64,000 bases of DNA from Holophagales bacterium (GTDB taxonomy: Bacteria > Acidobacteriota > Thermoanaerobaculia > Multivoradales > Multivoraceae), in contig VXUF01000048.1 in the NCBI GenBank assembly GCA_009837085.1, positions 14,111-78,110 on the forward strand. Reading direction: 5' to 3'. Below the pieces are notes generated by a model. The model had not been told where the DNA came from. It did not search any database and was given only the letters and a program-made list of their open reading frames with translations. Each line of letters starts with the position of its first letter. Within the stretch, counting starts at the first letter, position 1. This document shows positions 34,569 to 49,969 of the stretch, piece after piece. A program made the position numbers and the translations under genes.

Positions 34569-36350
34569 GTGCAGGTCGTCGCACACTGGGTGCGCCGGCG
34601 TCCTCGCCGGCTGCCGCCGGAGGCGGCGGAAAGAACGTGCCGGCCGCAAGGCCGGCGAACGCTTTGCCTGCTCGTCGCGCTCGCCCTCGGTTGCACCTCG
34701 GCGCCCGACGGCGACGCCGACCTGATCCTCACCAACGGCCGCATCTACACCCTCGAAGCCGCGCAGGCCTGGGCCGAAGCGGTCGCGATCGCCGGCGGCG
34801 AGTTCACGTTCGTCGGCTCGACCGCGGAGGCGCTGGAACGGCGCGGCCCGAACACCGAAGTCCGCGACCTCGAAGGCCGCATGGCGATGCCGGGCATCTA
34901 CGACGCCCACGTTCATCCCGTCCTCGGCGGCACCGAGGTGCTGCTTCAGTGCCTGTTCCCGCCCACCGCGGGACCGGCGGAAATCGAGGAGACCCTGTCG
35001 GCCTGCGTCGCGGCCGATCCCGCCGCGGCCTGGATCGAGGGCGGGCGCTGGACGAGCAACTTCTTCGTCGAGCACGACATCGGCTCGCCGCGCGAGTGGC
35101 TGGACCGGTTCTCGGGCGACGTGGCGATCAGCCTGGCGGACGACACCGGCCACAACCGCTGGGTGAACAGCAAGGCCCTGGAACTGGCCGGCATCGACGC
35201 CGGCACGGTGGTCGAAGGCGGCGAGGTCGTGCTGGACGAGGCGACCGGCGAGCCGAACGGCCTGCTGCTCGAAGCGGCGATGTACCCGGTGTTCCAGGCG
35301 ATCCCCGACAAGACGGCGGAGCAGTTCCTGCGCGCCGCCCGCGAATCGATCCGGACGGCGAACCGCTTCGGCATCGTCGGCGTCAAGGAGGCGGGCGATG
35401 CGGGCACCGGCGTCGCGGCCTACAAGGCACTGGCCGACGAGGGCGCCCTGACCGTCCACATGGCGGCCTCGATCGCCATTCCGCTGGTCGCCGGCTCGCT
35501 CGATCTCGACGTCGACGCCCTGGAGCGGCTGCGCGAGGAGAACCGGGCCGCCAACCTCGACGCCGACCACGTGAAGATCTTCCTCGACGGCGTGCCGTCC
35601 GTCGCGCGGACGGCGGCGATGCTCGACGACTACGAGCCGGAAGTGCCGGGCGGACCGGCTCACAACGGCGAACTGCTGGTGCCGCCGGAAGCGCTCCACG
35701 CCTGGCTCCAGCAGCTCGACGCGCTGGGCGTCACGGTGAACATCCACACGGCGGGCGACCGGGCGGTCCGGGTCGCGCTCGACGCGATCGAGTTCGCGCG
35801 CGAACAGAACGGCGACTCCGGGCTGATGCACCAGCTCGCCCATTCCGGTTTCGTGGCGGTCGACGACGTGCCGCGTTACGCCGAACTCGGCGCGGTCGCG
35901 GACATGTCGCCGGCCATCTGGTACCCGTCCCTGATCTCCGACTCCATCCGCGCCGCCATCGGCGACCGCGCCGACCGCTCCTGGCCGGTGCGGGAGTTGC
36001 TCGACGCCGGCGCGCACGTCATCGTCGGCTCGGACTGGCCGGCCGTCATCCCGGACATGAACCCCTGGCCCGGCATGGAGGCGCTGGTCACCCGCGCCGA
36101 CCCCTGGGGCGGGTATCCGGGGACGCTGGCGCCGGAGCAGGCGGTGAGTCTGGAAGAAGCGATCGAGCTCTACACGCTCGCGGGCGCCCGGCTGCTCGGC
36201 GTCGAGTCGCGGGCCGGCACGATCGCCGCCGGCAAGTCAGCCGACCTGATCGTGCTCGATCGCAACCTCTTCGAGGTGCCGATCGAGGACGTCAGCGAGA
36301 CGAGCGTCGAAATGACTGTCTACGCAGGAGGAATCGTCCATGAGAAGTAG
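34569..36350 (+). CDS. Amidohydrolase family protein (Amidohydro_3 / YtcJ-like metal-dependent hydrolase), exported
   Basis: 593 aa. PGIYDAHVHP (HxH), FLDGV, NIHTAGD, HSGF and GSDWP motifs. h-region LCLLVALALGC. The start is GTG 34569, or the in-frame GTG 34590 that lies inside repeat R8. Confidence 0.88.
   Translation: MQVVAHWVRRRPRRLPPEAAERTCRPQGRRTLCLLVALALGCTSAPDGDADLILTNGRIYTLEAAQAWAEAVAIAGGEFTFVGSTAEALERRGPNTEVRDLEGRMAMPGIYDAHVHPVLGGTEVLLQCLFPPTAGPAEIEETLSACVAADPAAAWIEGGRWTSNFFVEHDIGSPREWLDRFSGDVAISLADDTGHNRWVNSKALELAGIDAGTVVEGGEVVLDEATGEPNGLLLEAAMYPVFQAIPDKTAEQFLRAARESIRTANRFGIVGVKEAGDAGTGVAAYKALADEGALTVHMAASIAIPLVAGSLDLDVDALERLREENRAANLDADHVKIFLDGVPSVARTAAMLDDYEPEVPGGPAHNGELLVPPEALHAWLQQLDALGVTVNIHTAGDRAVRVALDAIEFAREQNGDSGLMHQLAHSGFVAVDDVPRYAELGAVADMSPAIWYPSLISDSIRAAIGDRADRSWPVRELLDAGAHVIVGSDWPAVIPDMNPWPGMEALVTRADPWGGYPGTLAPEQAVSLEEAIELYTLAGARLLGVESRAGTIAAGKSADLIVLDRNLFEVPIEDVSETSVEMTVYAGGIVHEK
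34582..34657 (+). repeat. Hairpin repeat copy R8 (long form) inside the amidohydrolase 5' coding region
   Basis: cacactgggtgcgccggcgtcctcgccggc tgccgccggaggcggc ... gccggccgcaaggccggc, translated as HWVRRRPRRLPPEAAERTCRPQGRR. Confidence 0.9.
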
Positions 36351-38130
36351 AAGCGGCCGCCGCCGTCTGCGGCTGCCACACACTGGGTGCGCCGGCGTCC
36401 CCGCCGGCATCCGCTTTGCCCTCCTCGCGCTGACCATCGCCGCCCAACCCGCCGTCGCCCAGTTCCAGGACGGCGAGCCGGCGCCGTCGCGCAACGACCC
36501 GGCCGACACCATCCTCGACGGCGGCAACGTCTACACGCCCGACGGCTGGGCAGAGTCCATCGCGATCCGCGACGGCGTCATCGTCGCGGTCGGCAACAGC
36601 GCTTCCGTCGCCGCGTTCCGCGCCGACGCCACCGAGTTCGTCGACCTGGCGGGCCGGACCGTCTTCCCCGGCTTCCACGACGTCCACGTGCATCCGTTGA
36701 TCGCGGGCATGCAGGAGTTCTCGTGCCGGCTGCCTCCGGGCGCGACACCGGACATCATCAGCGAGTCGGTCGGCGAGTGCGCTTCAAAGGCCGAGCCGGG
36801 GGAGTGGATCAACGGCGGCAACTGGGTGGCGGCGGTGTTCGAGCCCGGCCAGCAGACCAGGCAGTTCCTCGACGCCGTGTCGCCGGACAACCCGGTCTTC
36901 CTCTACGACGAGTCCCACCACAGCGTCTGGGTCAACACGATGGCGCTGGAAGTGGCCGGCATCGACCGCGACACGCCGGACCCGGAGGGCGGGATCATCG
37001 AGCGCGACCAGGACGGCAACCCGACCGGCCTGCTGCGCGAGACGGCCAACGCGATGGTGGCTTCGGTGATTCCTCCGGCCTCGGACGCGCGGAAGATGCA
37101 GGGCATGAAGATCGCCACCGACGAGATGCTGGCCCACGGCATCACCTCGTTCACCGTCGCCTACGCGAACTCGTGGCAGCTCGGCGCGCTGGCGCAACTG
37201 GCGCGTGAGGGAACGTTGAAGCAGCGGGTGCGGGCCTGCGTCGCCTGGGCGCACAATCCGGCGCTCGCCGATGCAGCCGAGTCCCAACTCGCGATCCGGG
37301 CGACCTACGCGAGCGAGCGACTGAAGGTCGACTGCGTGAAGATCATGCTCGACGGCGTACCGACGGAGAGCCACACCGCGGCGATGCTCGCGCCCTACGA
37401 GGACTCGACCGGCGAGGACGATCCGCGGCCCAAGCTCGGGCTGCTCCTGGTGCCGCAGGAGGCGCTGAACGACGCGGTCACGGCGTTCGACCGCCAGGGG
37501 CTGCACGTCAAGATGCACGCCGCCGGCGACGGCGCGGTGCGGGCCGCGATCGACGCCGTCGCGGCGGCCCGGGAACGGAACGGCTTCGGCGGCCCGATGC
37601 ACGACGTCGGCCACAGCACCTTCGTTGACCCGGCCGACATTCCCCGGCCGCGCGAACTGGGGATGGCCTGGGAGTTCTCGCCCTACATCTGGTTCCCCAC
37701 GCCGATGGCGGCGATCGACATCCGCAAGGCGGTCGGCGACGAGCGGATGAAGCGATGGGTGCCGATCAGGGACGCCCTCGAGACGGGCGCCCTCGTGGCG
37801 GCCGGCTCGGACTGGCCGGTGGTGCCTCTGGTCGACCCGTGGCTCGCGGTCGAGACGATGGTGACCCGGCAGGTTCCCGGCGGCAGCGAGGAGACGCTCG
37901 GCCTCCAGGGACAGGTGAGGCTCGAGGACGCTCTTCGCATCATGACCTGGAACGGCGCGCGCCTGATGGGCCAGGACGACAAGGTCGGCACGATCGAGGT
38001 TGGGAAGGAGGCCGACCTCGTCGTGACCTCGCAGAACCCGTTCGACGTCGAGCCGACCCAGGTCCACCGGACGAAGGTGGAGATGACGTTCATCGCCGGC
38101 GAGAGGGTGTACACCGCCGGTGCGAACTAG
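36340..38130 (+). CDS. Amidohydrolase family protein (Amidohydro_3), exported; paralog of the preceding gene
   Basis: 596 aa. Strong aggagga SD 7 nt before ATG 36340, overlapping the upstream gene by 11 nt. PGFHDVHVHP, MLDGV, KMHAAGD, HSTF and GSDWP. Signal region RRRLRLPHTGCAGVPAGIRFALLALTIAAQPAVAQ. Confidence 0.9.
   Translation: MRSRSGRRRLRLPHTGCAGVPAGIRFALLALTIAAQPAVAQFQDGEPAPSRNDPADTILDGGNVYTPDGWAESIAIRDGVIVAVGNSASVAAFRADATEFVDLAGRTVFPGFHDVHVHPLIAGMQEFSCRLPPGATPDIISESVGECASKAEPGEWINGGNWVAAVFEPGQQTRQFLDAVSPDNPVFLYDESHHSVWVNTMALEVAGIDRDTPDPEGGIIERDQDGNPTGLLRETANAMVASVIPPASDARKMQGMKIATDEMLAHGITSFTVAYANSWQLGALAQLAREGTLKQRVRACVAWAHNPALADAAESQLAIRATYASERLKVDCVKIMLDGVPTESHTAAMLAPYEDSTGEDDPRPKLGLLLVPQEALNDAVTAFDRQGLHVKMHAAGDGAVRAAIDAVAAARERNGFGGPMHDVGHSTFVDPADIPRPRELGMAWEFSPYIWFPTPMAAIDIRKAVGDERMKRWVPIRDALETGALVAAGSDWPVVPLVDPWLAVETMVTRQVPGGSEETLGLQGQVRLEDALRIMTWNGARLMGQDDKVGTIEVGKEADLVVTSQNPFDVEPTQVHRTKVEMTFIAGERVYTAGAN
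36379..36413 (+). repeat. Hairpin repeat copy R9 (short/truncated) inside the signal-peptide coding region
   Basis: cacactgggtgcgccggcgtccccgccggcatccgc. Confidence 0.85.
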
Positions 38131-40993
38131 GGCGGAGCCGGCCTTTCGGCCGGCGCGTGCTTCTGGCCGCCTTCGGCGGCAGCCGGCGGGGACGCCGGCG
38201 CACCCAGTCTGTGCGGCGCGAGGTGCTGGCTGGCTCGTCCTTGGGATCGTGCTTCGGTTGCTCGCGGCCGCGCCCGTCGCGGCCGCCGAGCCGGACGCGC
38301 GCGCCCTCTACCGCCTCCATTGCGGCGGCTGTCACGGGCAGGCGCTCGAAGGCGGGCTCGCGGAGCCGCTGATCAAGTCGGACTGGCGGTTCGGCCGGGA
38401 CGGCTTCTCGGTGGAGAGCAACATCCGGCACGGCATCCCGGGCACCGACATGCCGGGCTACCTCGGCGAACTCTCGAACGAGGAGATGGCGGCGCTCGTC
38501 GAGCTGATCTACAGCCTGCAGACGGAGGAGGTCTGGATCGCGAAGCCGCTGCCGCCGGCGGTCGAGACGGAGCACTACACGCTCCGGGTCGAGTACCTGG
38601 CCACCGACGAACTGGAGAACCCCTGGGGCATCGAGTTCACGGGTCCGTCGGAAGCGCTGATCTCCGAGGACGCGGGGTACCTGATCCGGTACCGGGACGG
38701 CAGGGTGGATCCGGAGCGGATTACGGGGCTGCCGCCGGTTGACCTCGCGACCTCGACCGGCGGGCTGATGGACATCGCGCTCGATCCGGACTATGCGGAG
38801 AACGGATGGGTCTACGCGGCGATCAGCCACTCGGAAGATCCGAACGACCGCTACGCCCGCGGGCTGACCCGGATCATCCGCGGCCGGGTCGACGGCAACC
38901 GCTGGCGGGACACGGAGTACCTCTTCCGGCTCGATCCCGGGTACCACCTGCCCGACAGCAAGCACTGGGGCGGCCGCCTGCTGTTCGACCGCGACGGCTT
39001 CCTCTACTTCTCGATCGGCGACATGAGCGCGGCGATGAACTCGCAGGATCCGGCCATGCCGTCGGGCAAGGTGTTCCGCATCCGGCCCGACGGCGGCATC
39101 CCGGACGACAACCCCTTCGCCGGCCAGGACGGAGCGCTCGGCGCGGTGTTCACTCTCGGCAACCGGAACGTCCAGGGCATGGCGCAGCATCCGGAGACCG
39201 GCGGGATCTGGGCCGCCGAGCACGGTCCGCGCGGCGGCGACGAACTGAATCTCCTCGTCAAGGGCCGGAACTACGGCTGGCCGGTCGTGACGTTCGGCGT
39301 CAACTACGACGGCTCGGTGATCAGCGACCGGACCCGCGCCGACGGCATCGAGCCCCCGGTCGTCGAGTGGACGCCGGCGCTCGCCGTCGGCCCGATCGAG
39401 TTCGTGGCGAGCCCGGCTTTCGAGCAGTGGCGAGGCAACCTGCTGGTCGGTTCGCTCTCCTTCGAGGAACTCCGGCGCCTGGAGCTCGACGGCGGCCGGG
39501 TCACTCGCCAGGAACTCCTGTTCAAGGGCCATGGCCGCATCCGCGACATCAAGACCGGCCCCGACGGCGCGATCTACCTGCTCCTCAACAACCCCGGCGC
39601 CCTGGTCCGCCTGACGGCCGCCGAGACGACCAACGTCACCGCGATCGAACACGCGGCCCTCATCCCGATGACTTCGCGCACGCCGCTCGTGCTGGAGGAT
39701 CACACCCTGGTCGTCCGCGACGAACGGATCGCCGACATCTGCCCCAGCAGCCCAGGCTGCACGCCGGCGGATGCCCGCGTCGTCGACGGCGCCGGCAAGT
39801 TCGTCATCCCGGCGCTCGCCGACATGCACAACCACTTCGATGGCTTCGCCTGGGACGGCACGGACGCCTCACGCATCCGGATGCGCGACCAGAACCTGAG
39901 GCAGTACGTCATGTTCGGGGTCGCCACGGCGAGGGACCCCTCCGGCGGCCCCCTGGTCCTGGAGGCGCGCGACGCGATCGAGCGCGGCGAGCTGTTCGGG
40001 CCGCGGATCTTCGTTTCGTCGCCGCTGATGGACGGCGACCCGCCGCTCTTCCCGATTCCGCGGACGTTCACGGAGCCCGGGGAGGCGGCTGACTTCGTCC
40101 GCCGGAGCGCGGCGGAAGGGTACGACCTGGCCAAGGTCTACACCACGCTCAGCCTCAAGGTGTTCGACGCGGTGATGGCGGCCGCCGCGGAGGTGGGCCT
40201 TACGGTCGCGGCCCACGTGCCGATCCGCGTGCCCCTGGAGCACGCCCTGGAGCGCGGGCTGCGCTCGATCGAGCACCTGACCGGCTACGACGTCGCCTGC
40301 GCGGCCCCGCACGTGAAGATGGAGCCGGTCCGGCAGGACATCTACCAGGGCTGGGCGTGGTGCTCGCCGGAGAAGGTGGCCGAGCTGGCGGCGCTGACCG
40401 CGAAGTACGAGGTCTGGAACGTGCCGACCCTCGCCCTGTGGGACAGCACGGTGACCGAGTTCGACCGGCCGCAGCGCGACGCGGGCGAGATCGGCAAGTA
40501 CGAGCACCCGACGACGCCCGGCGGCATCGAGTGGCTCTACACCCTGTACGGACCGCGCGAGCGGGCGGGGATCACCGGGACGCGCTCGGTGCGGCTCGGC
40601 CTGGTCAAGGCGCTCCACGACGCGGGCGCGCCGCTCCTCGTCGGCACCGACATCTCGGCCACCGGCTATACCGTCCACCGGGAGATGGGCCTCTTCGTCG
40701 AGGCCGGCCTGACGCCGTACCAGACGCTGGAAGCCGCGACCTCGGAGGCGGCCCGCTACATGGACCGGGAAGGCGAGTTCGGGGTGCTCGCCACGGGCGC
40801 GCGGGGCGACGTTCTGCTCCTGGACGCGAACCCGCTCGACGACATCGGCAACGCACGTAGGATCCGCGGCCTGATGTTCCGCGACAGGTGGTGGTCGAAG
40901 CAGGCGATCGACGCCGAGCTGGAAGCGATCCAGCGCGAGTACGCGGAAGACGAGGCGCGTCTGCGGGAACTGGGGATCGGACCGCGGCCGTGA
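38120..40993 (+). CDS. Three-domain fusion: cytochrome c + PQQ-dependent sugar (glucose/sorbosone) dehydrogenase + amidohydrolase, exported
   Basis: 957 aa. CGGCH at about aa 68-72. The sGDH-like six-blade region runs about aa 150-500 (ENPWGIEF, GGLMDIALDP, HWGGRLLFDRDGFLYFSIGD, GKVFRIRPDG, GNRNVQGMA, EHGPRGGDELN, GRNYGWP). The amidohydrolase runs from about aa 505 (ADMHNHF, AAHV, IEHL, VGTD). GTG 38120 overlaps the upstream gene. Confidence 0.85.
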   Translation: MRTRAEPAFRPARASGRLRRQPAGTPAHPVCAARGAGWLVLGIVLRLLAAAPVAAAEPDARALYRLHCGGCHGQALEGGLAEPLIKSDWRFGRDGFSVESNIRHGIPGTDMPGYLGELSNEEMAALVELIYSLQTEEVWIAKPLPPAVETEHYTLRVEYLATDELENPWGIEFTGPSEALISEDAGYLIRYRDGRVDPERITGLPPVDLATSTGGLMDIALDPDYAENGWVYAAISHSEDPNDRYARGLTRIIRGRVDGNRWRDTEYLFRLDPGYHLPDSKHWGGRLLFDRDGFLYFSIGDMSAAMNSQDPAMPSGKVFRIRPDGGIPDDNPFAGQDGALGAVFTLGNRNVQGMAQHPETGGIWAAEHGPRGGDELNLLVKGRNYGWPVVTFGVNYDGSVISDRTRADGIEPPVVEWTPALAVGPIEFVASPAFEQWRGNLLVGSLSFEELRRLELDGGRVTRQELLFKGHGRIRDIKTGPDGAIYLLLNNPGALVRLTAAETTNVTAIEHAALIPMTSRTPLVLEDHTLVVRDERIADICPSSPGCTPADARVVDGAGKFVIPALADMHNHFDGFAWDGTDASRIRMRDQNLRQYVMFGVATARDPSGGPLVLEARDAIERGELFGPRIFVSSPLMDGDPPLFPIPRTFTEPGEAADFVRRSAAEGYDLAKVYTTLSLKVFDAVMAAAAEVGLTVAAHVPIRVPLEHALERGLRSIEHLTGYDVACAAPHVKMEPVRQDIYQGWAWCSPEKVAELAALTAKYEVWNVPTLALWDSTVTEFDRPQRDAGEIGKYEHPTTPGGIEWLYTLYGPRERAGITGTRSVRLGLVKALHDAGAPLLVGTDISATGYTVHREMGLFVEAGLTPYQTLEAATSEAARYMDREGEFGVLATGARGDVLLLDANPLDDIGNARRIRGLMFRDRWWSKQAIDAELEAIQREYAEDEARLRELGIGPRP
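38131..38213 (-). repeat. Hairpin repeat copy R10 (long form, inverted) inside the 5' coding region of the fusion gene
   Basis: The reverse complement reads cacagactgggtgcgccggcgtccccgccggc tgccgccgaaggcggc ... gccggccgaaaggccggc. In the gene frame it is translated as AFRPARASGRLRRQPAGTPAHPV. Confidence 0.9.
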
Positions 40994-42435
40994 GCGAAGG
41001 CGCGCCCCAGTCCCTGCGCTCAGGCGCGCTCGGCCTCTGGGGCGTCGTGTTCCTGGTCGTCGGCTCGGCGGCGCCGCTGACGTCGATGATGGGCGCGGTG
41101 CCGCCGCCGCTGTCGATCGGCAACGGCATCGGCGCGCCCGGGGCCTGGGTGCTGACGGGTCTGGTGCTGACCCTGTTCGCGGTCGGCTACGCGACGATGA
41201 GCCGGTTCGTCACGAACGCCGGCGCGTTCTACGCCTACATCGCGCGCGGCCTCGGGCGGCCGGCGGGCCTGGGGGGCGCGCTGGTGGCCGTCCTCTCCTA
41301 CAACACGATCCAGTGCGCGCTTTGGGGGCTGTTCGGCTTCTTCTCCGTGAACATCCTGAATCCCAAGCTGGGCGTCGACGTCGCTTGGTACTGGTGGTCC
41401 TTCGTGCTGATGGCGATCACCGCGGTGCTCGGCTACTTCGGGATCGAGATCTCGGCCAGGGTCCTGGGCGTGCTGCTGATCCTCGAGGTCCTCGTCCTCC
41501 TGGTGCTCGACGTCGCCGTCGTGTTCACCGGCGGCGCGAGCGGCCTCCAACTCAACTCGTTCAACCCGGCCGAGATCTTCTCGGGCGCGCCGGGGGTGAC
41601 CTTCGTCTTCGCCTTCGCGACGTTCGTCGGCTTCGAGGCGACCGCGATCTACGGCGAAGAGACCCGGGATCCGAAGCGCACCGTGCCGCGGGCGACCTAC
41701 GTGGCGGTGGCGATCATCACCGTCTTCTACGCCCTGACCTCCTGGTCGATCGTCCAGGCCTACGGCGAGGACGAGGCCGTCGCCGCGGCCACCGGGAATC
41801 CGGACGGGCTGTTCCTGGACGCGAGTGCGAGCTACGTCCACCCGCTGTCGGCGAGCATGATGGAGTGGCTCATCCTCACCTCCATCTTCGCCGCCCTGCT
41901 GGCGTTCCACAACGCGGCCGCGCGCTACTTCTACGCGATGGCGCGGGAGGGCCTGCTGCCGCGGCGGATCGCCCGCACCCACCCGCGCTACGGCTCGCCC
42001 TACCTCGCCGGACTCCTGCAGGCCGAGGTCGCCTTCGTCATCACGCTGGTCTTCGTGCTGGCCGGACTGGATCCGTACGCCGGCCTGTTCGCCTGGCTGA
42101 GCGGCATCGCGGCGCTGGGGATCATCGGCCTGCAGTGCCTGACCTCGCTGTCCGTCATCGCGTTCTTCCGGCGGACCGGTCTGGACGCGCGGCCGTGGCA
42201 CACGAAGGTGGCGCCGGGGCTGGGCGCGCTCGGCCTGGCGGCGGCGATGGTGTTCGTCGTCGTCAACTGGGACGCGCTGACCGGGGCGAGCACCGGCCTG
42301 GTCGGCTCGCTGTGGGCTGCCGTGCCGATCTTCTTCGTGTGCGGCGTCGTCTGGGCCGCCGCCATCCGCCGCCGCGACGCCGCGGCCTACGAACGCCTGG
42401 GCCACTTCATCGACGAATCACCGGACGCGGCGTAG
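40990..42435 (+). CDS. APC superfamily amino acid/polyamine permease
   Basis: 481 aa from GTG 40990 (GTGA overlap with the upstream stop). About 12 TM helices, with GAPGAWVLTGLV...GYATMS and the FVGFEATAIYGEE motif. Confidence 0.9.
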   Translation: MSEGAPQSLRSGALGLWGVVFLVVGSAAPLTSMMGAVPPPLSIGNGIGAPGAWVLTGLVLTLFAVGYATMSRFVTNAGAFYAYIARGLGRPAGLGGALVAVLSYNTIQCALWGLFGFFSVNILNPKLGVDVAWYWWSFVLMAITAVLGYFGIEISARVLGVLLILEVLVLLVLDVAVVFTGGASGLQLNSFNPAEIFSGAPGVTFVFAFATFVGFEATAIYGEETRDPKRTVPRATYVAVAIITVFYALTSWSIVQAYGEDEAVAAATGNPDGLFLDASASYVHPLSASMMEWLILTSIFAALLAFHNAAARYFYAMAREGLLPRRIARTHPRYGSPYLAGLLQAEVAFVITLVFVLAGLDPYAGLFAWLSGIAALGIIGLQCLTSLSVIAFFRRTGLDARPWHTKVAPGLGALGLAAAMVFVVVNWDALTGASTGLVGSLWAAVPIFFVCGVVWAAAIRRRDAAAYERLGHFIDESPDAA

Positions 42436-42465
42436 CTGAAGCCACGTCGTCAAAAGGGACTGCAC

Positions 42466-43791
42466 ATGAGCGACATCGAACGCACCGAACAGCTCGTCGA
42501 GCAGGGCGCCAGGACACTGCGGGTCATGTACCCCGACCTCCACGGGATCGCCCGCGGCAAGGACCTGGTGCTCGCCGACGCCGGCCACGAGATCGAGGAC
42601 GGGGTCGCCTTCTGCTCGGCGATCATGACCACGGACCTGGCGCACACGCCGGTGATGGGCGGCGAGATCGGTTACCCGGACTTCTTCGCGCGGCCGGATC
42701 TCTCGACCGCCGCGGCGCTGCCGTGGGCGCCGGACGTCGCCGCCTGCCTGGTGGACCTGGTCGACGAGGAGGGCAATCCCCATCCGTTTGACCCGCGCGG
42801 CGCGGTGCGGCGGGCGGCGGACGGCCTGGCCGAGCTGGATCTTCTGCCGATCGTCGGCCCGGAGCTCGAGTTCTTCCTGTTCAAGCCGGACGACGCCGCT
42901 CCGGAAGGCGCCGTCCGCTACGTCGACACGCTGTCGCGGGTCTACACCGTCGGCGCCGAGAGCGACCCGGGCGGCATCTCGGGCCGGATGCTCCACGCCT
43001 GCGCCGAGATGGGCCTGGGCGCCTACGCCGCGAACCACGAGTTCATGAACTCCCAGTACGAGATCAACCTCCGCCACGGCCCCGCCCTCGACGCCGCCGA
43101 CCGCGCCTTCCGTCTCAAGGCGACGGTCAAGGAGATGGCCGTGCTGGAGGAGATGCGGGCCACCTTCATGGGCCGGCCGTTCAACGACCAGGGCGGTTCG
43201 GGGCTCCACCTCCACGTGTCGCTCCAGGACGGCGACGGCGCCAACCGGATCGGCGATCCGGCGGGCCCGGACGGCCTGAGCGCGGCCGCGCTCTCCTTCA
43301 TCGCCGGCGTGCTGGAGCACGCCGGGGCGCTGATGGCCTTCCTCAACCCGACGGTCAACGCGTTCAAGCGGATCGCGCCCGACTCGCTGGCGCCGATCAA
43401 CGTCTCCTGGGGCCTCGACAACCGGACGACCTTCGTCCGCGTGCCGCCCGAGCGCGGCAAGGCGGCCCGCCTGGAGATCCGTGTCGGCGACGGCACGGCG
43501 AACTGCCACCTGGCGATCGCCGCGCTGCTCCAGGCCGGGCTCGACGGCGTGCGGCGGGAACTCGAGGCGCCGGAACAGACCGCGGGCGACGCCTACCGGC
43601 GGGAGGATCTCGCCCCGCTGCCGAGCTCCCTCGACCAGGCCCTCGACGCGCTGGAGGCCGACGAACTGCTTTGCGACGGCGTCGGCCGCGAGATCGTCGA
43701 CGCCTTCCTGACCCTCAAGCGCTTCGAGCTCGAGCGCTACCACGGCTGGGTGACCGACTGGGAGCGCAACGAGTACAGGATTCAACTCTAG
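42466..43791 (+). CDS. Glutamine-synthetase-like gamma-glutamyl-amide (gamma-glutamylpolyamine/alkylamine) synthetase
   Basis: 441 aa. GPELEFFLF, NHEFMNSQYEINL, GSGLHLHVSL, NAFKRI and the RVGDG motif match GS catalytic-domain signatures. The size and absence of an adenylylation loop fit the PuuA/GlnA2-4-like class. Confidence 0.9.
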   Translation: MSDIERTEQLVEQGARTLRVMYPDLHGIARGKDLVLADAGHEIEDGVAFCSAIMTTDLAHTPVMGGEIGYPDFFARPDLSTAAALPWAPDVAACLVDLVDEEGNPHPFDPRGAVRRAADGLAELDLLPIVGPELEFFLFKPDDAAPEGAVRYVDTLSRVYTVGAESDPGGISGRMLHACAEMGLGAYAANHEFMNSQYEINLRHGPALDAADRAFRLKATVKEMAVLEEMRATFMGRPFNDQGGSGLHLHVSLQDGDGANRIGDPAGPDGLSAAALSFIAGVLEHAGALMAFLNPTVNAFKRIAPDSLAPINVSWGLDNRTTFVRVPPERGKAARLEIRVGDGTANCHLAIAALLQAGLDGVRRELEAPEQTAGDAYRREDLAPLPSSLDQALDALEADELLCDGVGREIVDAFLTLKRFELERYHGWVTDWERNEYRIQL

Positions 43792-43802
43792 GGACTGGGC
43801 CG

Positions 43803-45053
43803 GTGGCGCACGCAGCCAACGCCTCGCTCGCGGCCGAGATCGACCTCTGCGATCACGACCGGTTCGCCCAGGGTGTGCCGCACGAGTGGTTCGCCCGGCT
43901 GCGGGCGGAGGCGCCGGTGTACTGGCAGCCGGAGCCGAAGGGCCCCGGCTTCTGGTCGATCACGCGGCACGAGGATGTCGTCCGCGTCTCGAAGGACCCG
44001 AAGCGCTTCTCGTCCGAAGTCGGCGGCACCTCGCTCGAGGACCTGGAGCCGGAGCACGTCGAGGCCCGCAAGTCGATGATCGACATGGATCCGCCACGCC
44101 ACTACAAGCTGCGGTCGCTGATCAGCAAGCGTTTCCTGCCGCGGGCGCTCACCGCCTTCTCGGACCACATCCGGCAACTGTTCCGGGGCATTCTGGAGAC
44201 CGCAATCGCCCGGGGCGACTTCGACTTCGTCGACGACGTGGCGGTCGAGCTGCCGATGCGGGTGTTCGCCGAGATGCTGGGCGCGCCCCAGGAGGACCGG
44301 CGGTTGATCGTCGACATCGGCAATCGCATCCTCGGCGCGACCGACCCGGAGTACGTCGACGACTACGAGACGGAGCGGGAGCGCTTCAAGCACCTGCCGT
44401 TCTCGAGCCCGGCGAGTCTCGAGATGTTCGAGTACGGGCGGAAGCTGGCGGCGCAGCGCCGCGCCGAACCGCGCGACGACATCGTGACCGACCTGGTGTT
44501 CGCCGAGGTCGACGGCGAGCCGCTCACGCCGCACGAGTTCGATCTCTACTTTCTGCTGCTGGCGGCGGCCGGCAACGAGACGACGCGCCACTCGCTGTCG
44601 GGCGGCATGCACGAGCTGCTGCGCCAGCCCGACGAGGGGTTGCGCGTGGTCGCGGGCGACGAGGACCTCGCGACAACCGCCGCCGACGAGGTGCTGCGGA
44701 CGGTGACGGCGGTTCACCACTTCCGCCGCACGGCGACCGAGGACGTCGAGATGCGCGGCGAGGTCGTCCGCGCCGGCGACAAGGTCGCGATGTGGTACAC
44801 GAGCGCCAACCGGGACGAGGACGTGTTCGAGGATCCCTACAGATTCGATGTCGGCCGCAAGCCGAACCGGCACCTGACCTTCGGCATCGGGCCGCACTTC
44901 TGCCTGGGCGCGTACCTGGCGCGGCTCGAGATCAAGATCGCGCTGGAGGAGCTGCGGCCCCATCTCGGTCGCCTCGAACTGGTCTCGGAGCCGGAGCGGC
45001 TGCGCTCCAACTTCTTCAACGGCATGAAGCACATGGGAGTTCGCTACCGATGA
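43803..45053 (+). CDS. Cytochrome P450 monooxygenase
   Basis: 416 aa from GTG 43803. I-helix AAAGNETTRH, ExxR (EVLR), and heme loop FGIGPHFCLGAYLAR. Confidence 0.93.
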   Translation: MAHAANASLAAEIDLCDHDRFAQGVPHEWFARLRAEAPVYWQPEPKGPGFWSITRHEDVVRVSKDPKRFSSEVGGTSLEDLEPEHVEARKSMIDMDPPRHYKLRSLISKRFLPRALTAFSDHIRQLFRGILETAIARGDFDFVDDVAVELPMRVFAEMLGAPQEDRRLIVDIGNRILGATDPEYVDDYETERERFKHLPFSSPASLEMFEYGRKLAAQRRAEPRDDIVTDLVFAEVDGEPLTPHEFDLYFLLLAAAGNETTRHSLSGGMHELLRQPDEGLRVVAGDEDLATTAADEVLRTVTAVHHFRRTATEDVEMRGEVVRAGDKVAMWYTSANRDEDVFEDPYRFDVGRKPNRHLTFGIGPHFCLGAYLARLEIKIALEELRPHLGRLELVSEPERLRSNFFNGMKHMGVRYR

Positions 45054-45838
45054 GTGGAGGCGCCCCCGGCAACTCGGGCACCAACTCCGGGCGCGGACGC
45101 AGGCCGCGGATCGGCATCGTCGGCGACGTCCGGGACGCGATCATCGGCCCTTGGGACGAGGTCGTCTCGATGGTCCCGCACGACTACGTCTCGGCGATTG
45201 CCGCCGCCGGCGGGGCGCCGGTCATCATCCCGAGCGTCGAGCCTTACGACGAGGAACCCGGGGCCGCGCTCGACGACCTCGACGGGATCGTCTTCATGGG
45301 CGGCAAGGACTTCGATGCGCAGATCTACGGCGCGGAACCGCACCCGGAGAACGACGAGCACGACGAGACGCGTGACCGGGTCGAACTGGCGATCGGCCGC
45401 GCCGCGCTCGAACGCAGGATGCCGATCCTCGGGATCTGCCGCGGTTTCCAGCTCCTGAACATCCTCTACGGTGGCGACCTGGAACAGCACCTCGGCGACC
45501 GGCTCGACATGAAGCCGCACCGCGACGTCCTGGGCGAGTTCACGCGGCACATGGTGACGATCGAGCCGGGGACGCACCTGGCGGCGGCGATGGAGGCGGG
45601 CAAGGAAGACGGAGACGTCGAGATCGCCTCGCACCATCACCAGGGCGCCGGCCGGCTGGGCGAGGGGCTCCGTGTGGCCGCCACCGCGCCGGACGGCGTG
45701 ATCGAGGCGCTGGAGGATCCCCGGCTTCCGTTCTGCCTCGGTGTCCAGTGGCACCCCGAGGTCACCGCGCCGGAGGACGGCGGCCGGCTGTTCCGCGCCC
45801 TGGTCGACTTCTGCTCATCCCATCCGTCAACGGCCTGA
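45050..45838 (+). CDS. Gamma-glutamyl-amide hydrolase, class I glutamine amidotransferase / peptidase C26 (PuuD-like)
   Basis: 262 aa. ATG 45050 overlaps the P450 stop (ATGA). Nucleophile GICRGFQLLN and the His/Glu context GVQWHPE. Confidence 0.9.
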   Translation: MSGGAPGNSGTNSGRGRRPRIGIVGDVRDAIIGPWDEVVSMVPHDYVSAIAAAGGAPVIIPSVEPYDEEPGAALDDLDGIVFMGGKDFDAQIYGAEPHPENDEHDETRDRVELAIGRAALERRMPILGICRGFQLLNILYGGDLEQHLGDRLDMKPHRDVLGEFTRHMVTIEPGTHLAAAMEAGKEDGDVEIASHHHQGAGRLGEGLRVAATAPDGVIEALEDPRLPFCLGVQWHPEVTAPEDGGRLFRALVDFCSSHPSTA

Positions 45839-45850: not shown

Positions 45851-46654
45851 ATGCCACTCAAGGGCTACAGCGGCCCCCTCTCCGCCAGCGGTCGCGGCGG
45901 CCTCGTGCCGGCGCCGCCCTGGCACTACTCCTGCGACTTCCTGATCGTCGAGTACCGCACCGATGCGGACGCGATCACGGCCCTGCTGCCGGCGGAGCTC
46001 GAGCCGGCCGAGCGGCCGGACATGGCCTGCGTCATCTTCGCCGACTGGCAGTCCTGCTCCGACGATCTGCACGAACTGGAGGACCCGATCCAGTCCCAGT
46101 ACAAGGAGTACTTCATCGTCGTCGGCGCCAGCTTTCAGGGCGAGCCGGTCTCGCGTTGCGTCTACATCTGGGTCGACAAGGACTTCGCGATGTTCCGCGG
46201 CTGGGTGCAGGGCTTCCCGAAGAAGCTCGGCTCGATCCACATGACCCGCAGCTTCGAGGTCGGCAAGGCGGCTTGCCGGCTCGCCCCCGGCGCCCGCTTC
46301 GGGGCGACCTGCACCGCCAACGACCGCCAGATCGTCCGCGCCGTCGTCGAGCTCGAGGGGATCAGCGAGACGGGGCCGACGGTGAACGCTCCGCCGATGT
46401 TCAACACGCGCCACTTTCCGGCCGCCGCCGGGCTCGAACCCACGGTGTTCGAGATGGTTCGCGCCGGCGGCTACGACCGGGACTCGACCGACGTCTGGGA
46501 AGGGCCGGCCACGCTGGCCTTCGGCGAGGACACGCTGGAGGACCTGCAGGCGATCGCGCCGCGCGAGGTGCACTGCGGCTTCCGGTTCTCCTTCGCCTAC
46601 AGCGTCGACGGCGTGGAGGTCGTCGGACCGCATGACCGGGAGCAACTGCGATGA
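45851..46654 (+). CDS. Acetoacetate decarboxylase (ADC) family protein
   Basis: 267 aa. The N-terminal PAPPWHYSCDFLIVEYRTD and the beta-cone-sized length fit the ADC family by recollection. Confidence 0.75.
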   Translation: MPLKGYSGPLSASGRGGLVPAPPWHYSCDFLIVEYRTDADAITALLPAELEPAERPDMACVIFADWQSCSDDLHELEDPIQSQYKEYFIVVGASFQGEPVSRCVYIWVDKDFAMFRGWVQGFPKKLGSIHMTRSFEVGKAACRLAPGARFGATCTANDRQIVRAVVELEGISETGPTVNAPPMFNTRHFPAAAGLEPTVFEMVRAGGYDRDSTDVWEGPATLAFGEDTLEDLQAIAPREVHCGFRFSFAYSVDGVEVVGPHDREQLR

Positions 46655-47442
46655 GACATGAGCGCCGCGCCGGCGACGGCACCTGGCTGCCTCCGATCGA
46701 TCCGCCGTCGAAGATCATCGCCGTCCACCTGAGCTACCGCTCGCGCTGCGTCGAGTACCAGATGGAGCGCATCCCGGAGGTGCCGTCCTACTTCATGAAG
46801 CCCACCTCCTCGCTGAGCGCCCACGAGGCGCCGGTGGCGCGGCCGCGCGGCTGCCGCTTCCTGAACTACGAGGGGGAGTTCGCGGTCGTCATCGGCCGGC
46901 GGGCGATCGGCGTGGCGATCGAGGAGGCGCTCGACTATGTCCGCGGCTACACGCTGGTCAACGACTTCGGCATCCATGACTTCCGGCACGCGGACCGCGG
47001 CTCGATGCTGCGGGTCAAGGGCCAGGACGGCTTCGGGCCGATGGGCCCGGCCCTGGTCGACGCCGGCGACGTCGACCCGAACGACCTGACACTGCGCACC
47101 CTGGTCAACGGCGAGGTGGTGCAGGAGGGGAACACGGGCGAGGACCTCCTGTTCTCGTTCGCGTACCAGGTCGCCGACCTGAGCCGGCTGATCACGCTCG
47201 AACCCGGCGACGTCATCATGACCGGCACGCCGGCGAACTCGCGGCCGGTCGAGCCGGGCGACGTGGTCGAGGTGCAGTGCGACGAGATCGGCACCCTGCG
47301 CAACCCGATCGTCGAGCTGGACCGGGACCTGCAGCCGGTCGGCGAGCAGCCCCAGGTGACCGGCAACACGCTGCACGTCGCGCTCTGCGTGCCGGAGGAC
47401 GAGGCGGAGGTCGTCGCGGCGGCGGAGGCGGCGGGCTCGTGA
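46651..47442 (+). CDS. Fumarylacetoacetate hydrolase (FAH) family protein (HpaG/2-oxo-dienoate hydratase/isomerase-decarboxylase type)
   Basis: 263 aa. YFMKPTSS, NYEGEFAVVIG, NDFGIHDF..KG.DGF.PMGP and PGDVIMTGTP motifs. ATGA overlap with the upstream stop. Confidence 0.9.
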   Translation: MRHERRAGDGTWLPPIDPPSKIIAVHLSYRSRCVEYQMERIPEVPSYFMKPTSSLSAHEAPVARPRGCRFLNYEGEFAVVIGRRAIGVAIEEALDYVRGYTLVNDFGIHDFRHADRGSMLRVKGQDGFGPMGPALVDAGDVDPNDLTLRTLVNGEVVQEGNTGEDLLFSFAYQVADLSRLITLEPGDVIMTGTPANSRPVEPGDVVEVQCDEIGTLRNPIVELDRDLQPVGEQPQVTGNTLHVALCVPEDEAEVVAAAEAAGS

Positions 47443-48974
47443 CGGCCGACGCGACACTGGGTGCGCCTGCGTCCTCGCCGGCATCTGGCGCTGGTGAGGA
47501 GCGAACCGACGTTGAGGGCGTCGCCGTTCCGACCGGCCATCTGATCGGCGGCCGGCGGGTCGGCGCCGGCGCCGGCTTCGAGGTGCGCTCGCCGATCGAC
47601 TGGGAATGGAAGCTGGCCGAGTTTCCCGAAGCGGGGGCGGTGGAGGTCGACGCCGCCGTCGACGCCGCGCGGGGGGCGTTCCCGGACTGGGCGGCGCTGG
47701 GACCGGAGGGACGCGCGCCGTACCTGCTGCGCCTGGCTGCCGGGGTCGAACGGCGGGCCGCCGAGATCGCCCAGGTCGAGACGGTCGACAACGGTTCGCT
47801 GCTGGAAGCGATGCGCGAGCGGGTGATTCCGCGCGGCGGGATGAACTTCCGCTTCTTCGCCGAGTACGCGGTGTCGCGTCTGGCCGAGCCGTCGCGGATC
47901 CTGCATGGCGGCGAGCGGAACACGGTCCGCCACGATCCGGCCGGCGTCGTCGCGGTGTCGACGCCGTGGAACGCGCCCTTCATGCTGGCGACCTGGCGGG
48001 TCGGCCCGGCCCTCGCCGCGGGCAACACCGTGGTCCTCAAGCCGCCGGAGTGGGCGCCGCTGACGTGCTCACTGCTAGGCGATCTGGCGGAGGAGGCGGG
48101 GCTGCCGCCGGGCGTGCTCAACATCGTCCACGGCGGGCCGGAGACCGGCGCGATGCTGACCGGCCACGCCGGCGTCGACCGGATCGCCTTCACCGGATCG
48201 CCGGCCACTGCCCGCACGGTCGGCGCCGCGGCCGCGGCGGAGTTGACGCCCGTCTCCTTCGAACTCGGCGGCAAGTCGCCGTTCCTCGTCTTCGCCGACG
48301 CCGACCTGGAGGCCGCTGCCCGCACCGCGGCGTACCAGTACGACAACTCAGGCCAGGTCTGCCTGGCCGGCACCCGGTTGCTAGTGGAGCGGAGCTGCCT
48401 CGACGCCTTCATGGAGCGGTTCCTGGCGGAAGTCGAGGCGATCCGGGTCGGCGATCCGCGGGAGGCCGCGACGACCTACGGTCCGCTGATCCACCCGCGG
48501 GCGCTTTCGCGGGTCGAGGCACACGTCGAGAAGGCGCTGGCCCAGGGCGCGGCGCTCCGCTTCGGCGGCAAGAGCAGCGGCGGGCTCTACTTCCCGCCGA
48601 CGCTGTTCACCGACGTGCCGTCCGGCGCCGACATCCTGCGCGAGGAGGTGTTCGGGCCGGTGCTGACCCTGCAGGCGTTCGAGGACGACGACGAGGCGAT
48701 CGCGTTGGCCGAGTCGACGGACTACGGGCTCGCCACGATGATCTTCACCGGCGACGAGTCCCGCGCGGGCCGGCTCTCGCGCCGGATCAGCGCCGGCACG
48801 ATCTGGGTGAACTGCTTCTACGTCCGCGACCTCGAGACGCCCTTCGGCGGGACGAAGCACTCCGGCATCGGCCGCGAGGGCGGGCGGCATTCGTTCGACT
48901 TCTACTGCGACGTGAAGACGGTCTGCGAGCGCACTGCCGCGTTCGCGGCCGCCGGGACAGGAGGTGGCTCGTGA
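47439..48974 (+). CDS. NAD+-dependent hydroxymuconic-semialdehyde-type aldehyde dehydrogenase (HpaE/XylG-like)
   Basis: 511 aa from GTG 47439 (GTGA overlap). NFRFFAEY, STPWNAPF, FTGSPATAR, ELGGKSP, catalytic Cys SGQVCLAG, and C-terminal VRDLETPFGGTKHSGIGREGGRHSFDFY, which closely resembles HpaE-type enzymes. Repeat R11 is translated near the N-terminus. Confidence 0.9.
   Translation: MTADATLGAPASSPASGAGEERTDVEGVAVPTGHLIGGRRVGAGAGFEVRSPIDWEWKLAEFPEAGAVEVDAAVDAARGAFPDWAALGPEGRAPYLLRLAAGVERRAAEIAQVETVDNGSLLEAMRERVIPRGGMNFRFFAEYAVSRLAEPSRILHGGERNTVRHDPAGVVAVSTPWNAPFMLATWRVGPALAAGNTVVLKPPEWAPLTCSLLGDLAEEAGLPPGVLNIVHGGPETGAMLTGHAGVDRIAFTGSPATARTVGAAAAAELTPVSFELGGKSPFLVFADADLEAAARTAAYQYDNSGQVCLAGTRLLVERSCLDAFMERFLAEVEAIRVGDPREAATTYGPLIHPRALSRVEAHVEKALAQGAALRFGGKSSGGLYFPPTLFTDVPSGADILREEVFGPVLTLQAFEDDDEAIALAESTDYGLATMIFTGDESRAGRLSRRISAGTIWVNCFYVRDLETPFGGTKHSGIGREGGRHSFDFYCDVKTVCERTAAFAAAGTGGGS
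47453..47491 (+). repeat. Hairpin repeat copy R11 (short form) inside the aldehyde dehydrogenase 5' coding region
   Basis: gacactgggtgcgcctgcgtcctcgccggcatctggcgc. It shares the cctgc arm variant with R5. Confidence 0.85.
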
Positions 48975-49969
48975 TCCGCGGCATCCACCACGTCGGGCTT
49001 GCCGTCACCGACCTCGCCGAGGCCTCGGCGCGCTGGCGGCGGCTGCTCGGCCTGACCCTGGCCGGAGACGACGGTGCCTCACCACTGGGTGCGCCGGCGT
49101 CCCCGCCGGCTGCCGCCGCAGGCGGCCGGGAGACGCGCGAGGCGCAAGCCTCGCTCCCTTCCGCCCTGCTCCGCTGCGCCTATGAAGACTTCTGCGTCCG
49201 CCTGACCGCCGGCGACCGAGGCTGCGTCGACTACATCGCCTACGAACTCGAAGCCGGCGTGACGCTGGCCGAGGCCGGCGGCCGGCTGTCCGACGCCGGA
49301 ACGCTCGCCGTGCCCTTCGAGCTGCCGGCCGGCCGGTTCGGGTTGCGCACCGCCGACCCGGACGGCAACGGCGTGGCCGTCGTCGAGCACGTTGCGCCGA
49401 ACGACCCGCGTCCCGACGTCTGCAAGCACTCGGACACCCTGCCCGGCTTCCATCCGCGCCGGCTCCAGCATGTGAACTACCTCACTGCCGACACCCCGCG
49501 CGCCGTCGACTGGTACGTCGAGGCTCTCGGCCTCAAGATCACCGACTGGATCGGCGACGACGCCTGCTGGCTCCACGCCGACCGCGACCATCACGTGCTC
49601 GCCTTCCTCGACAAGGGCTATGCCCACATCCACCACGTCGCCTTCGAACTGACCGACTGGGGCGAGATGCGGGTCGGCCTTGATCACCTGGCGGCCCACC
49701 GGCGACCGATCGTCTGGGGGCCCGGCCGCCACGGCATGGCCCGGAACCTGTTCGCCTACTGGCGGATGCCCGAGGAGGACACGTTCATCGAGTTCTTCGC
49801 CGACATGGAAGTGCTCGGCCCGAACCACCAGGTCCGCCACTTCCCGGACGATGCCTTCGCCTCGAACACCTGGGGTCAGCTCCCCCCGCGGTCCTACTTC
49901 CGGTTCGACGAAGAAGCGATCCGCGCCGAGTGGGAGCAGTCGCAGCAACTGGGCGATCCGCTCTCGTAG
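48971..49969 (+). CDS. Type I extradiol ring-cleavage dioxygenase (two-module VOC fold) carrying an in-frame repeat insertion
   Basis: 332 aa from GTG 48971 (GTGA overlap). N-terminus IRGIHHVGLAVTDLAEASARWRRLLGL. Putative 2-His-1-carboxylate ligands lie in LQHVNY, HIHHVAFEL and FIEFFAD. Residues about 37-65 are encoded by repeat R12. Confidence 0.85.
   Translation: MIRGIHHVGLAVTDLAEASARWRRLLGLTLAGDDGASPLGAPASPPAAAAGGRETREAQASLPSALLRCAYEDFCVRLTAGDRGCVDYIAYELEAGVTLAEAGGRLSDAGTLAVPFELPAGRFGLRTADPDGNGVAVVEHVAPNDPRPDVCKHSDTLPGFHPRRLQHVNYLTADTPRAVDWYVEALGLKITDWIGDDACWLHADRDHHVLAFLDKGYAHIHHVAFELTDWGEMRVGLDHLAAHRRPIVWGPGRHGMARNLFAYWRMPEEDTFIEFFADMEVLGPNHQVRHFPDDAFASNTWGQLPPRSYFRFDEEAIRAEWEQSQQLGDPLS
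49080..49156 (+). repeat. Hairpin repeat copy R12 (long form) inserted in-frame within the dioxygenase gene
   Basis: caccactgggtgcgccggcgtccccgccggc tgccgccgcaggcggc ... gcgaggcgcaagcctcgc, translated as SPLGAPASPPAAAAGGRETREAQASLPSA. Confidence 0.9.

Follow-up and report, generated by a model that had tools for sequence, protein, structure and literature searches.

The DNA analysed here, a 64,000-nucleotide stretch of contig VXUF01000048.1 (positions 14,111 to 78,110 of the forward strand; GenBank assembly GCA_009837085.1, Holophagales bacterium) hereafter called the window, belongs to the sponge-associated Acidobacteriota of the 'Ca. Multivorans' group and carries an eight-gene operon (40990-49969), in which genes for a glutamine synthetase (GS)-like ligase and a cytochrome P450 are followed by an extradiol meta-cleavage set (Table 1). 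Given that the region has a G+C content of ~70%, which makes raw lists of open reading frames (ORFs) noisy, the genes were resolved by third-position GC profiles together with ORF calls. The profiles show an unbroken run of genes on the plus strand. The original prediction, made from the sequence alone, had recognized four of them, encoding an APC permease, the GS-like ligase, the P450 and a peptidase C26-family hydrolase, as a self-contained gamma-glutamylation cassette. ORF calls, third-position GC and Pfam assignments agree that these four genes are consecutive on the plus strand at the positions predicted and that the P450 and C26 genes are coupled by an ATGA overlap (45050-45053). However, the cassette is the upper half of the operon; the lower half encodes an acetoacetate decarboxylase (ADC)-fold enzyme, a FAH-family enzyme, an aldehyde dehydrogenase (ALDH) and a VOC-type extradiol dioxygenase, and the linkage between the two halves is conserved across phyla. 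The successive junctions, starting with the overlap between the GTG start codon of the permease gene and the stop codon of an upstream fusion gene, are GTGA (40990), 30 nt, 11 nt, ATGA (45050), 12 nt (between the C26 and ADC-fold genes), ATGA (46651), GTGA (47439) and GTGA (48971). Such overlaps of stop and start codons favour the view that the operon genes are transcribed together and not independently. The hairpin that directly follows the last gene is the only terminator-like site on the plus strand between 31 and 51 kb, but such sites are no commoner than the shuffled expectation and hence provide weak evidence. An Rfam scan detected no structured RNA.

Table 1. Features of the window; labels with the prefix L denote loci recovered in the genome scan described in the text.
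Feature	Position	Strand	Remarks
APC-family amine or amino-acid permease	40990..42435	+	PF00324 103.6 bits, PF13520 91.4 bits
GS-like gamma-glutamyl-amine ligase (predicted)	42466..43791	+	Gln-synt_C 320 bits
Cytochrome P450, CYP125/124 clan	43803..45053	+	GTG start 11 nt past the stop codon of the GS-like gene
Peptidase C26/class I GATase-fold gamma-glutamyl-amide hydrolase (predicted)	45050..45838	+	PF07722 200 bits
ADC-fold enzyme, MppR/Sbi00515 type, predicted pyruvate hydratase-aldolase	45851..46654	+	PF06314 180.8 bits
FAH-family enzyme, HpaG-C-terminal-like decarboxylase or isomerase	46651..47442	+	PF01557 200.9 bits
NAD(P)-dependent aldehyde dehydrogenase, HpaE-like	47439..48974	+	PF00171 483.8 bits
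Two-domain VOC-type extradiol dioxygenase, HpaD-like	48971..49969	+	PF00903
Weak terminator-like hairpin	50013..50025	+	directly after the last operon gene
Possible accessory genes: S9 peptidase, two Amidohydro_3, fusion gene	31821..40993	+	Pfam assignments; upstream of the operon only in the window clade
REP/MITE-like element, copies	502, 1662, 3381, 23829, 29348, 32018, 34585, 36382, 38182, 47456, 49084, 50040, 50083		
REP-like element in the N-terminal extension of ALDH	47445..47498	+	in frame, net 54 nt (18 codons) relative to L006
REP-like element in the dioxygenase	49079..49161	+	in frame; 29 codons (4-nt overlap included); lies within the N-terminal domain, which is non-catalytic
TetR-family regulator gene	51790..52452	-	
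Exported degradative genes	11412..12953, 52457..55072, 18203..21893, 59313..62852		

Aligned by MAFFT with GlnA and PuuA of E. coli and with the IpuC protein of Paenarthrobacter aurescens TC1, the ligase retains all metal-, ATP- and glutamate-binding residues (E129, E131, E212, E220, H269, H271, R321, R339, R344, E357 and R359), and the ammonium site is lost (D50C, S53I, Y179V and E327L, where E327 is the flap residue). The same pattern of loss is found in PuuA and IpuC. The cysteine at position 50 is common to the window ligase and TC1 IpuC and is invariant in 27 members of the ligase family. HMMER alignment to solved glutamine synthetases recovered the same substitutions along with an eight-residue insertion after the D50/S53 motif. 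The lost ammonium-site residues argue against a true glutamine synthetase, and the residue pattern supports the assignment, in the original prediction, of a GS-like enzyme of the gamma-glutamylation type. The ligase does not reach the NCBIfam cut-off for GS type I, GS type III or gamma-glutamylputrescine synthetase (251.7 bits for the GGputSyn model, with a cut-off of 650), nor any other NCBIfam equivalog cut-off. Given its identity of 31-33% to GlnA, PuuA and IpuC, it appears to represent a separate lineage of gamma-glutamyl-amine ligases, with thousands of homologues at ~60% identity.

The P450 contains the heme-loop motif FGIGPHFCLG, the I-helix motif AGNETT and EVLR, and its best matches in the PDB are a reconstructed CYP125 ancestor (447 bits), an extant CYP125 (287 bits) and CYP124 (276 bits). 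It is 39-43% identical to Rhodococcus plasmid P450s that carry no CYP name, membership in the CYP125 family being defined by >40% identity to named CYP125 members. Apart from the ring-cleaving dioxygenase, this is the only oxygenase of the operon. Consistent with the original prediction as regards redox partners, no gene for a ferredoxin or a ferredoxin reductase, nor for a pyridoxal phosphate (PLP)-dependent decarboxylase, was detected in the 64 kb by tblastn with the partners encoded in related loci or by Pfam scans of most other ORFs (with ~21.9-29.1 kb covered by tblastn only); periplasmic cytochrome c domains were the only redox candidates in the Pfam scans. Because its dN/dS (0.13-0.16) shows purifying selection, the P450 is maintained in the Multivorans clade despite the lack of adjacent redox partners.

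The C26 hydrolase displays the sequence motifs GICRGFQ and GVQWHPE, and its best NCBIfam model is PuuD (108.8 bits, cut-off 266). The ADC-fold protein encoded next belongs to the MppR/Sbi00515/Swit_4259 branch of the acetoacetate decarboxylase-like superfamily: its PDB matches are MppR (4jm3, 193 bits), 4zbo (189 bits), which we take to be Sbi00515, and 5upb (98.6 bits), compared to 24 bits for the true decarboxylase 3bgt, and it retains the catalytic Schiff-base lysine in GWVQGFPKK. With 218 bits against a cut-off of 380 for the corresponding model, it is no MppR equivalog. MppR has been reported to act as an aldolase, ADC-like genes are induced with a meta-cleavage pathway in S. solfataricus, and an aldolase role beside meta-cleavage genes has been proposed earlier for ADC-like proteins of the MppR branch (PMC7820114); in the window, the gene sits within a probable amine-catabolic operon.

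The other three lower-half proteins are best matched by models from the Hpa/Hpc pathway, namely, the FAH-family enzyme by TIGR02303, HpaG-C-term (212.5 bits, cut-off 276.4), the ALDH, with its start position set by comparison with L006, by HpaE (469.5 bits, cut-off 638), and the dioxygenase by TIGR02295, HpaD (92.8 bits, cut-off 321.4). Alignment of the dioxygenase to homoprotocatechuate 2,3-dioxygenase (HPCD; 1f1x) shows that it keeps H155, H200, H214, H248, Y257 and E267, which comprise the 2-His-1-carboxylate triad and second-sphere residues (for the roles of H200, H248 and Y257, see PMC6308299), with a tryptophan at the position of HPCD Arg243. Its dN/dS is 0.05-0.12. Unlike in Hpa/Hpc, the ADC-fold protein stands in place of the hydratase and the aldolase, and HpaF, HpaH and HpaI are missing.

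A scan with one genome per species yielded 80 loci. In 15 of these, the ligase is 91-99% identical to that of the window, and all 15 come from metagenome-assembled genomes (MAGs) of Thermoanaerobaculia, Holophagales and 'Ca. Multivorans' (Acidobacteriota). Some of the close-relative MAGs belong to the SB06xx sample series, which is a sponge metagenome series (PMC7883664). The remaining loci (55-63% identity) are nearly all from Actinomycetota, including Solirubrobacterales, Rubrobacterales and Conexibacter; cultured carriers of the cluster are Solirubrobacter soli DSM 22325 and Conexibacter sp. CPCC 205762. Three sampled homologue contexts all contain the same neighbour genes. Gene content was compared in a tblastn matrix of 44 distant loci, each flanked by 9 kb or more in both directions, and 11 close, fully flanked loci. 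The P450 gene is present in 41 of the 44 distant loci, and it lies directly downstream of the ligase gene, starting within 250 nt, in 40 distant and all 11 close loci (51/55), an arrangement far beyond chance. Among the distant loci, the VOC dioxygenase and FAH genes are each found in 38, ALDH in 37 and ADC in 34, and 34 combine all four with the P450. A permease is encoded in 32 distant loci, as is a C26 or GATase hydrolase (a ~230-aa class I GATase in 31), the hydrolase being present also in 11/11 close loci; a PLP-dependent group II decarboxylase is encoded in 37, a ferredoxin (Fdx) in 28 and a ferredoxin reductase (FdR) in 26. The missing redox partners, which the original prediction had noted, are thus a feature of certain lineages and not a defining oddity. 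In the actinobacterial clusters, the genes are usually arranged as FAH-Fdx-FdR-GATase-GS-P450-VOC-ADC-ALDH-permease; the order differs in the window clade, and Fdx, FdR and decarboxylase genes occur within 10 kb in none of its 11 loci.

A more distant version of the cluster, 46-53% identical (L085), resides on the Streptomyces canus plasmid NZ_CP107732.1 (47596-72927), where the P450 is 46% identical to that of the window and the permease, somewhat lower, 44%. In this cluster, a LigB-type enzyme, not homologous to the VOC dioxygenase and labelled 3,4-dihydroxyphenylacetate 2,3-dioxygenase in RefSeq, takes its place. This swap strongly supports the view that the pathway includes, as an integral step, the extradiol cleavage of a catechol resembling homoprotocatechuate. 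For a second ALDH of the S. canus cluster, PuuC is the best model and StyD (phenylacetaldehyde dehydrogenase) the second-best. The same cluster encodes a second P450 with its own ferredoxin and an F420-dependent LLM oxidoreductase, and adjoins integrase and transposase genes on a plasmid that is linear and mobilizable.

The conservation pattern bears on whether the adjacency of the two halves could be coincidental, with an Ipu-like aliphatic-amine cassette lying beside an unrelated meta-cleavage operon, or whether the locus might be biosynthetic. Three Solirubrobacterales loci (L050, L057 and L063) contain only a GATase-ligase-P450-decarboxylase module, with no ring-cleavage genes, and one ligase (70% identity) lacks a P450 gene beside it, as such a coincidence would predict. 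Nevertheless, this explanation appears very improbable: both halves are found together in 34 of the 44 distant loci, the genes occur in two different orders, the S. canus cluster has a non-homologous dioxygenase instead, the junctions are overlapping or short, and what surrounds the clusters are permeases and regulators of the GntR, LysR or TetR type, not biosynthetic scaffolds. As separate observations, the L057 module adjoins genes for a flavin amine oxidase, an SDR, a luciferase-like monooxygenase and an ABC transporter, and an adjacent pair of GS-like and P450 genes is present in Embleya sp. (NZ_CP108777.1 and NZ_CP108785.1).

Overall, the operon probably encodes the gamma-glutamylation-dependent catabolism of an aromatic amine that involves P450 oxidation and meta-cleavage. 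The substrate is likely to be aromatic because the lower half of the operon is an extradiol meta-cleavage set. To our knowledge, aromatic meta-cleavage clusters all need a catechol-making oxygenase, and the P450, as the sole candidate oxygenase in the operon, would fill this role.

Comparison with known systems shows which parts of this pathway have precedents. The Ipu cluster of P. aurescens TC1 (plasmid pTC1) includes a permease, IpuC, a P450 for oxidation of the gamma-glutamyl amide and an amidotransferase-type hydrolase (PMC6776027). Together with the Ipu system of Pseudomonas sp. KIE171, it parallels the upper half of the window operon, down to the D50-to-Cys replacement in the ligase and the C26/GATase-type hydrolase. 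The TC1 proteins are 33% (ligase), 31% (P450), 39% (hydrolase, AAur_pTC10065) and 37% (permease) identical to those of the window. However, the Ipu P450, at this identity, represents a different CYP family, the Ipu cluster has its own Fdx and FdR, which the window operon lacks, and it processes an aliphatic amine through subsequent alcohol and aldehyde dehydrogenases, where the window operon has the extradiol ring-cleavage set. The E. coli Puu pathway is comparable as well: the window analogues of PuuP, PuuA, PuuC and PuuD are 23%, 31%, 38% and 34% identical, respectively, and the end steps that we propose below (gamma-glutamyl-aminobutanal to gamma-glutamyl-GABA to gamma-aminobutyrate, GABA) are identical to those of Puu. 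In contrast, Puu acts on a diamine, whereas the window substrate would be aromatic, Puu includes the flavin oxidase PuuB, of which no homologue was seen among the operon proteins, and all matches to Puu models are below the equivalog cut-offs. Orthology to either Ipu or Puu is ruled out by the identities of 23-39% and the scores below cut-offs. What stands of the original Ipu/Puu/Atd-like interpretation, therefore, are the family assignments, the gamma-glutamylation logic and the family-level homology to TC1 Ipu, whereas the proposed order, in which the amine is oxidized and then released, is only one of several options because meta-cleavage genes follow in the operon.

The closest parallel in overall architecture is offered by the Atd/Tdn/Npa systems for aniline and 1-naphthylamine, in which meta-cleavage genes are clustered with those for a GS-like ligase, a GATase-like hydrolase and an oxygenase whose substrate is the glutamylated aromatic amine (PMC11335346). 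These systems use a multicomponent Rieske dioxygenase, which eliminates the nitrogen as the catechol is formed, whereas the window operon has a P450 monooxygenase, and no Rieske or ring-hydroxylating dioxygenase domain was found by Pfam in any operon protein. The lower pathways also differ, being of the catechol xyl/dmp type in Atd/Tdn/Npa and homoprotocatechuate-like, with the ADC-fold enzyme, in the window. The best reading of these comparisons is that the upper module would be of the Ipu type and the architecture as a whole of the Atd/Tdn type, such that the logic of both appears to be combined. The parallel with Atd/Tdn/Npa raises the alternative of an aniline-type substrate, e.g., 4-aminophenol derived from N-acyl-arylamines, which would be glutamylated, turned into gamma-glutaminyl-3,4-dihydroxybenzene through ortho-hydroxylation by the P450 and finally cleaved; the amidohydrolases upstream of the operon in the window clade and an HDAC-type amidohydrolase in the S. 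soli locus fit such a source. We consider this substrate class improbable, given that the PLP-dependent amino-acid decarboxylase found in 37 of the 44 distant clusters suggests an amine derived from an amino acid, and that the ligase scores lower against 8wwu (155 bits), presumably an NpaA1-type structure, and the PA5508-type 4hpp (130 bits) than against GS I-alpha and GmaS.

Within the pathway proposed above, that is, P450- and meta-cleavage-dependent catabolism of a gamma-glutamylated aromatic amine, we tentatively favour, with somewhat less than even confidence, a specific route in which tyramine or a close arylethylamine is converted to a catechol by the P450 and the ring is cleaved with the nitrogen protected, ending in GABA and glutamate. 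The substrate would be a primary amine of the phenolic type, with tyramine or a closely related arylethylamine as the most probable, the P450 would attack the ring, and glutamate would be removed late. In the actinobacterial clusters, the amine could be the product of the PLP-dependent decarboxylase, and in the window organism it would be imported by the APC permease. The GS-like ligase would then form the gamma-glutamyl amide using ATP and glutamate, and ring hydroxylation of the amide by the P450 would give a product of the gamma-glutamyl-dopamine type, the ring of which would be cleaved by the HpaD-like dioxygenase while the nitrogen is still protected. The HpaE-like ALDH, the HpaG-like FAH-family enzyme and the ADC-fold hydratase-aldolase are predicted to yield pyruvate and gamma-glutamyl-4-aminobutanal, which is also the product of PuuB; a PuuC-like oxidation, followed by PuuD-like hydrolysis by the C26 enzyme, would release GABA and glutamate. 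The gamma-glutamyl moiety would thus serve as a nitrogen-protecting group, blocking cyclization of the amine onto the quinone or the ring-fission aldehyde. A more speculative and, on balance, unlikely generalization is that the glutamyl group is kept through ring cleavage in a widespread pathway of soil Actinomycetota, in which tyramine/tyrosine catabolism converges on the Puu-type intermediates gamma-glutamyl-4-aminobutanal and gamma-glutamyl-GABA; this would amount to a complete, previously undescribed route for aromatic biogenic amines.

The point at which glutamate leaves is where the order implied by the original prediction, analogous to Ipu, diverges from this late-release route: the amine would be glutamylated, ring-hydroxylated and released at once by the C26 hydrolase, so that the free catecholamine is cleaved. 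This order agrees with the arrangement GS-P450-C26 and its ATGA coupling, and with the 39% identity between the C26 protein and the TC1 Ipu amidotransferase-like protein, for which the same role has been proposed. Yet, no deaminating enzyme was found in the operon by Pfam and NCBIfam scans, and the extradiol product of a free arylethylamine, bearing both an amine and an aldehyde, is expected to cyclize, as in betalamic acid formation, and would be a poor catabolic intermediate. Immediate release therefore seems quite unlikely.

The chemistry of the P450 leads to another alternative, oxidative deamination, in which the enzyme hydroxylates the carbon beside the amide nitrogen and the resulting carbinolamide decomposes into glutamine and an arylacetaldehyde (e.g., dopamine would give 3,4-dihydroxyphenylacetaldehyde, DOPAL); the ALDH would then produce homoprotocatechuate for Hpa-type meta-cleavage to pyruvate and succinic semialdehyde, and the C26/GATase protein would be a glutaminase that regenerates glutamate. 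Aliphatic C-H hydroxylation suits the CYP125/124 clan better than attack on a ring, the lower enzymes would act near the native substrates of HpaD, HpaE and HpaG, glutamine hydrolysis is the native chemistry of class I GATases, and StyD is the second-best model for the additional S. canus ALDH. However, this scheme requires a ready-made catechol substrate, as tyramine would have to be acted upon by a 4-hydroxyphenylacetate 3-hydroxylase, of which there is none in the gene and Pfam tables of seven loci. Furthermore, a dedicated glutaminase would be superfluous for a central metabolite such as glutamine, the Hpa matches are well under the equivalog cut-offs, and C26 lies beside lower-pathway genes in variant loci, such as L001, where it neighbours the ADC and FAH genes. 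Taken together, these considerations make oxidative deamination unlikely.

Several observations also weigh against the late-release route via tyramine and ring hydroxylation. Characterized members of the CYP125/124 clan hydroxylate aliphatic termini rather than aromatic rings, and neither the window nor the 10-kb surroundings in the 11 close relatives provide Fdx or FdR for the P450. The matches to HpaD, HpaE and HpaG all fall short of the equivalog cut-offs, homologues of HpaF, HpaH and HpaI were not found in Pfam and NCBIfam scans, and the operon has a single ALDH for the two oxidations proposed. The position of the hydrolase gene directly after that of the P450 also fits release of the amine straight after hydroxylation, and the ADC gene and/or the permease have been lost in several close relatives. 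Finally, the PLP-dependent decarboxylase of the related clusters is about equally distant from the Trp, DOPA, Tyr, diaminobutyrate, Asp and Glu decarboxylases and hence points to no particular amino acid.

In literature searches, whose coverage left out most subscription journals, we found no description of a cluster that combines a GS-like ligase, a P450 and meta-cleavage genes, and, within the same coverage, no bacterial catabolism of gamma-glutamyl-tyramine or gamma-glutamyl-dopamine. Known uses of gamma-glutamylation concern putrescine, isopropylamine and anilines, and the locus suggests a fourth, widespread use, with the cluster conserved in dozens of the scanned Actinomycetota genomes and present in sponge symbionts of another phylum. 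If correct, the proposal would add a new route to the catabolism of aromatic biogenic amines, give ADC-fold enzymes like MppR and Sbi00515 a physiological role, extend the P450s of the CYP125 clan to a new class of substrates and offer a rationale for protecting the nitrogen while the aromatic ring is cleaved. It lends itself to direct testing, as hosts are available in culture and complete clusters exist that encode redox partners of their own.

Within the Multivorans clade, all eight operon genes are under purifying selection (dN/dS 0.03-0.26; 0.03-0.13 for the permease). At the same time, the locus is undergoing remodelling, as indicated by clean gene-level deletions in close relatives. The ADC gene is precisely deleted in five of these (L005, L008, L011, L016 and L017), the permease gene and the part encoding the C-terminus of the upstream fusion protein are missing in three, and the S9 peptidase and an amidohydrolase in some; L008, in addition, has a 287-nt internal deletion in ALDH.

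The window is also populated by a repetitive extragenic palindrome (REP)/miniature inverted-repeat transposable element (MITE)-like sequence of ~45-93 nt with the core ACTGGGTGCGCCGGCGTCCYCGCCGGC, which is found in 13 copies in the 64 kb compared to 0 expected by chance. It forms two GC-rich hairpins (z = -2.75) and matches no Rfam family. Most copies are found at the start of a gene or between genes of an operon, and close relatives differ in the copies that they carry. Two lie in frame within operon genes (Table 1). The insertion in the dioxygenase is common only to L005 and L011, being absent in L006, L007, L009, L012, L013 and L016-L019. Despite these in-frame insertions, ALDH and the dioxygenase are under purifying selection.

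Of the possible accessory genes upstream of the operon, the last (38120-40993), translationally coupled to the permease gene as described above, encodes a fusion of a cytochrome c domain, a pyrroloquinoline quinone (PQQ)-type glucose/sorbosone-dehydrogenase (GSDH) beta-propeller and an amidohydrolase domain. All four upstream proteins have signal-peptide-like N-termini, and an NCBIfam scan gave no specific assignment for the S9 peptidase, the Amidohydro_3 proteins or the fusion protein. Apart from the gene-level deletions, the block is syntenic in most close relatives. A functional link of these exported hydrolases to the operon is conjectural; in the sponge-associated Acidobacteriota, the peptidase and amidohydrolases might harvest host-derived amides of the tyramine type. 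The G+C content over the operon and the upstream hydrolase genes (0.69-0.72 in 31800-52000) is higher than in 10000-31000 (0.60-0.69), and the nearest homologues from outside the clade, for the operon proteins checked, are from Actinomycetota, suggesting that the operon was horizontally acquired in the sponge-associated Acidobacteriota.

On the other side of the operon, the TetR-family regulator gene is located just past the beta-lactamase-family gene that trails the operon, a position that is syntenic in close relatives where this stretch was compared. Elsewhere in the window, the exported degradative genes encode two sulfatases and two PQQ-dependent dehydrogenases, along with a GH3 glycosidase and a TonB-dependent receptor. 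One of the sulfatases is a fusion with a DJ-1/PfpI domain, one of the dehydrogenases has a cytochrome c domain, and the receptor contains a carboxypeptidase-regulatory-like domain.

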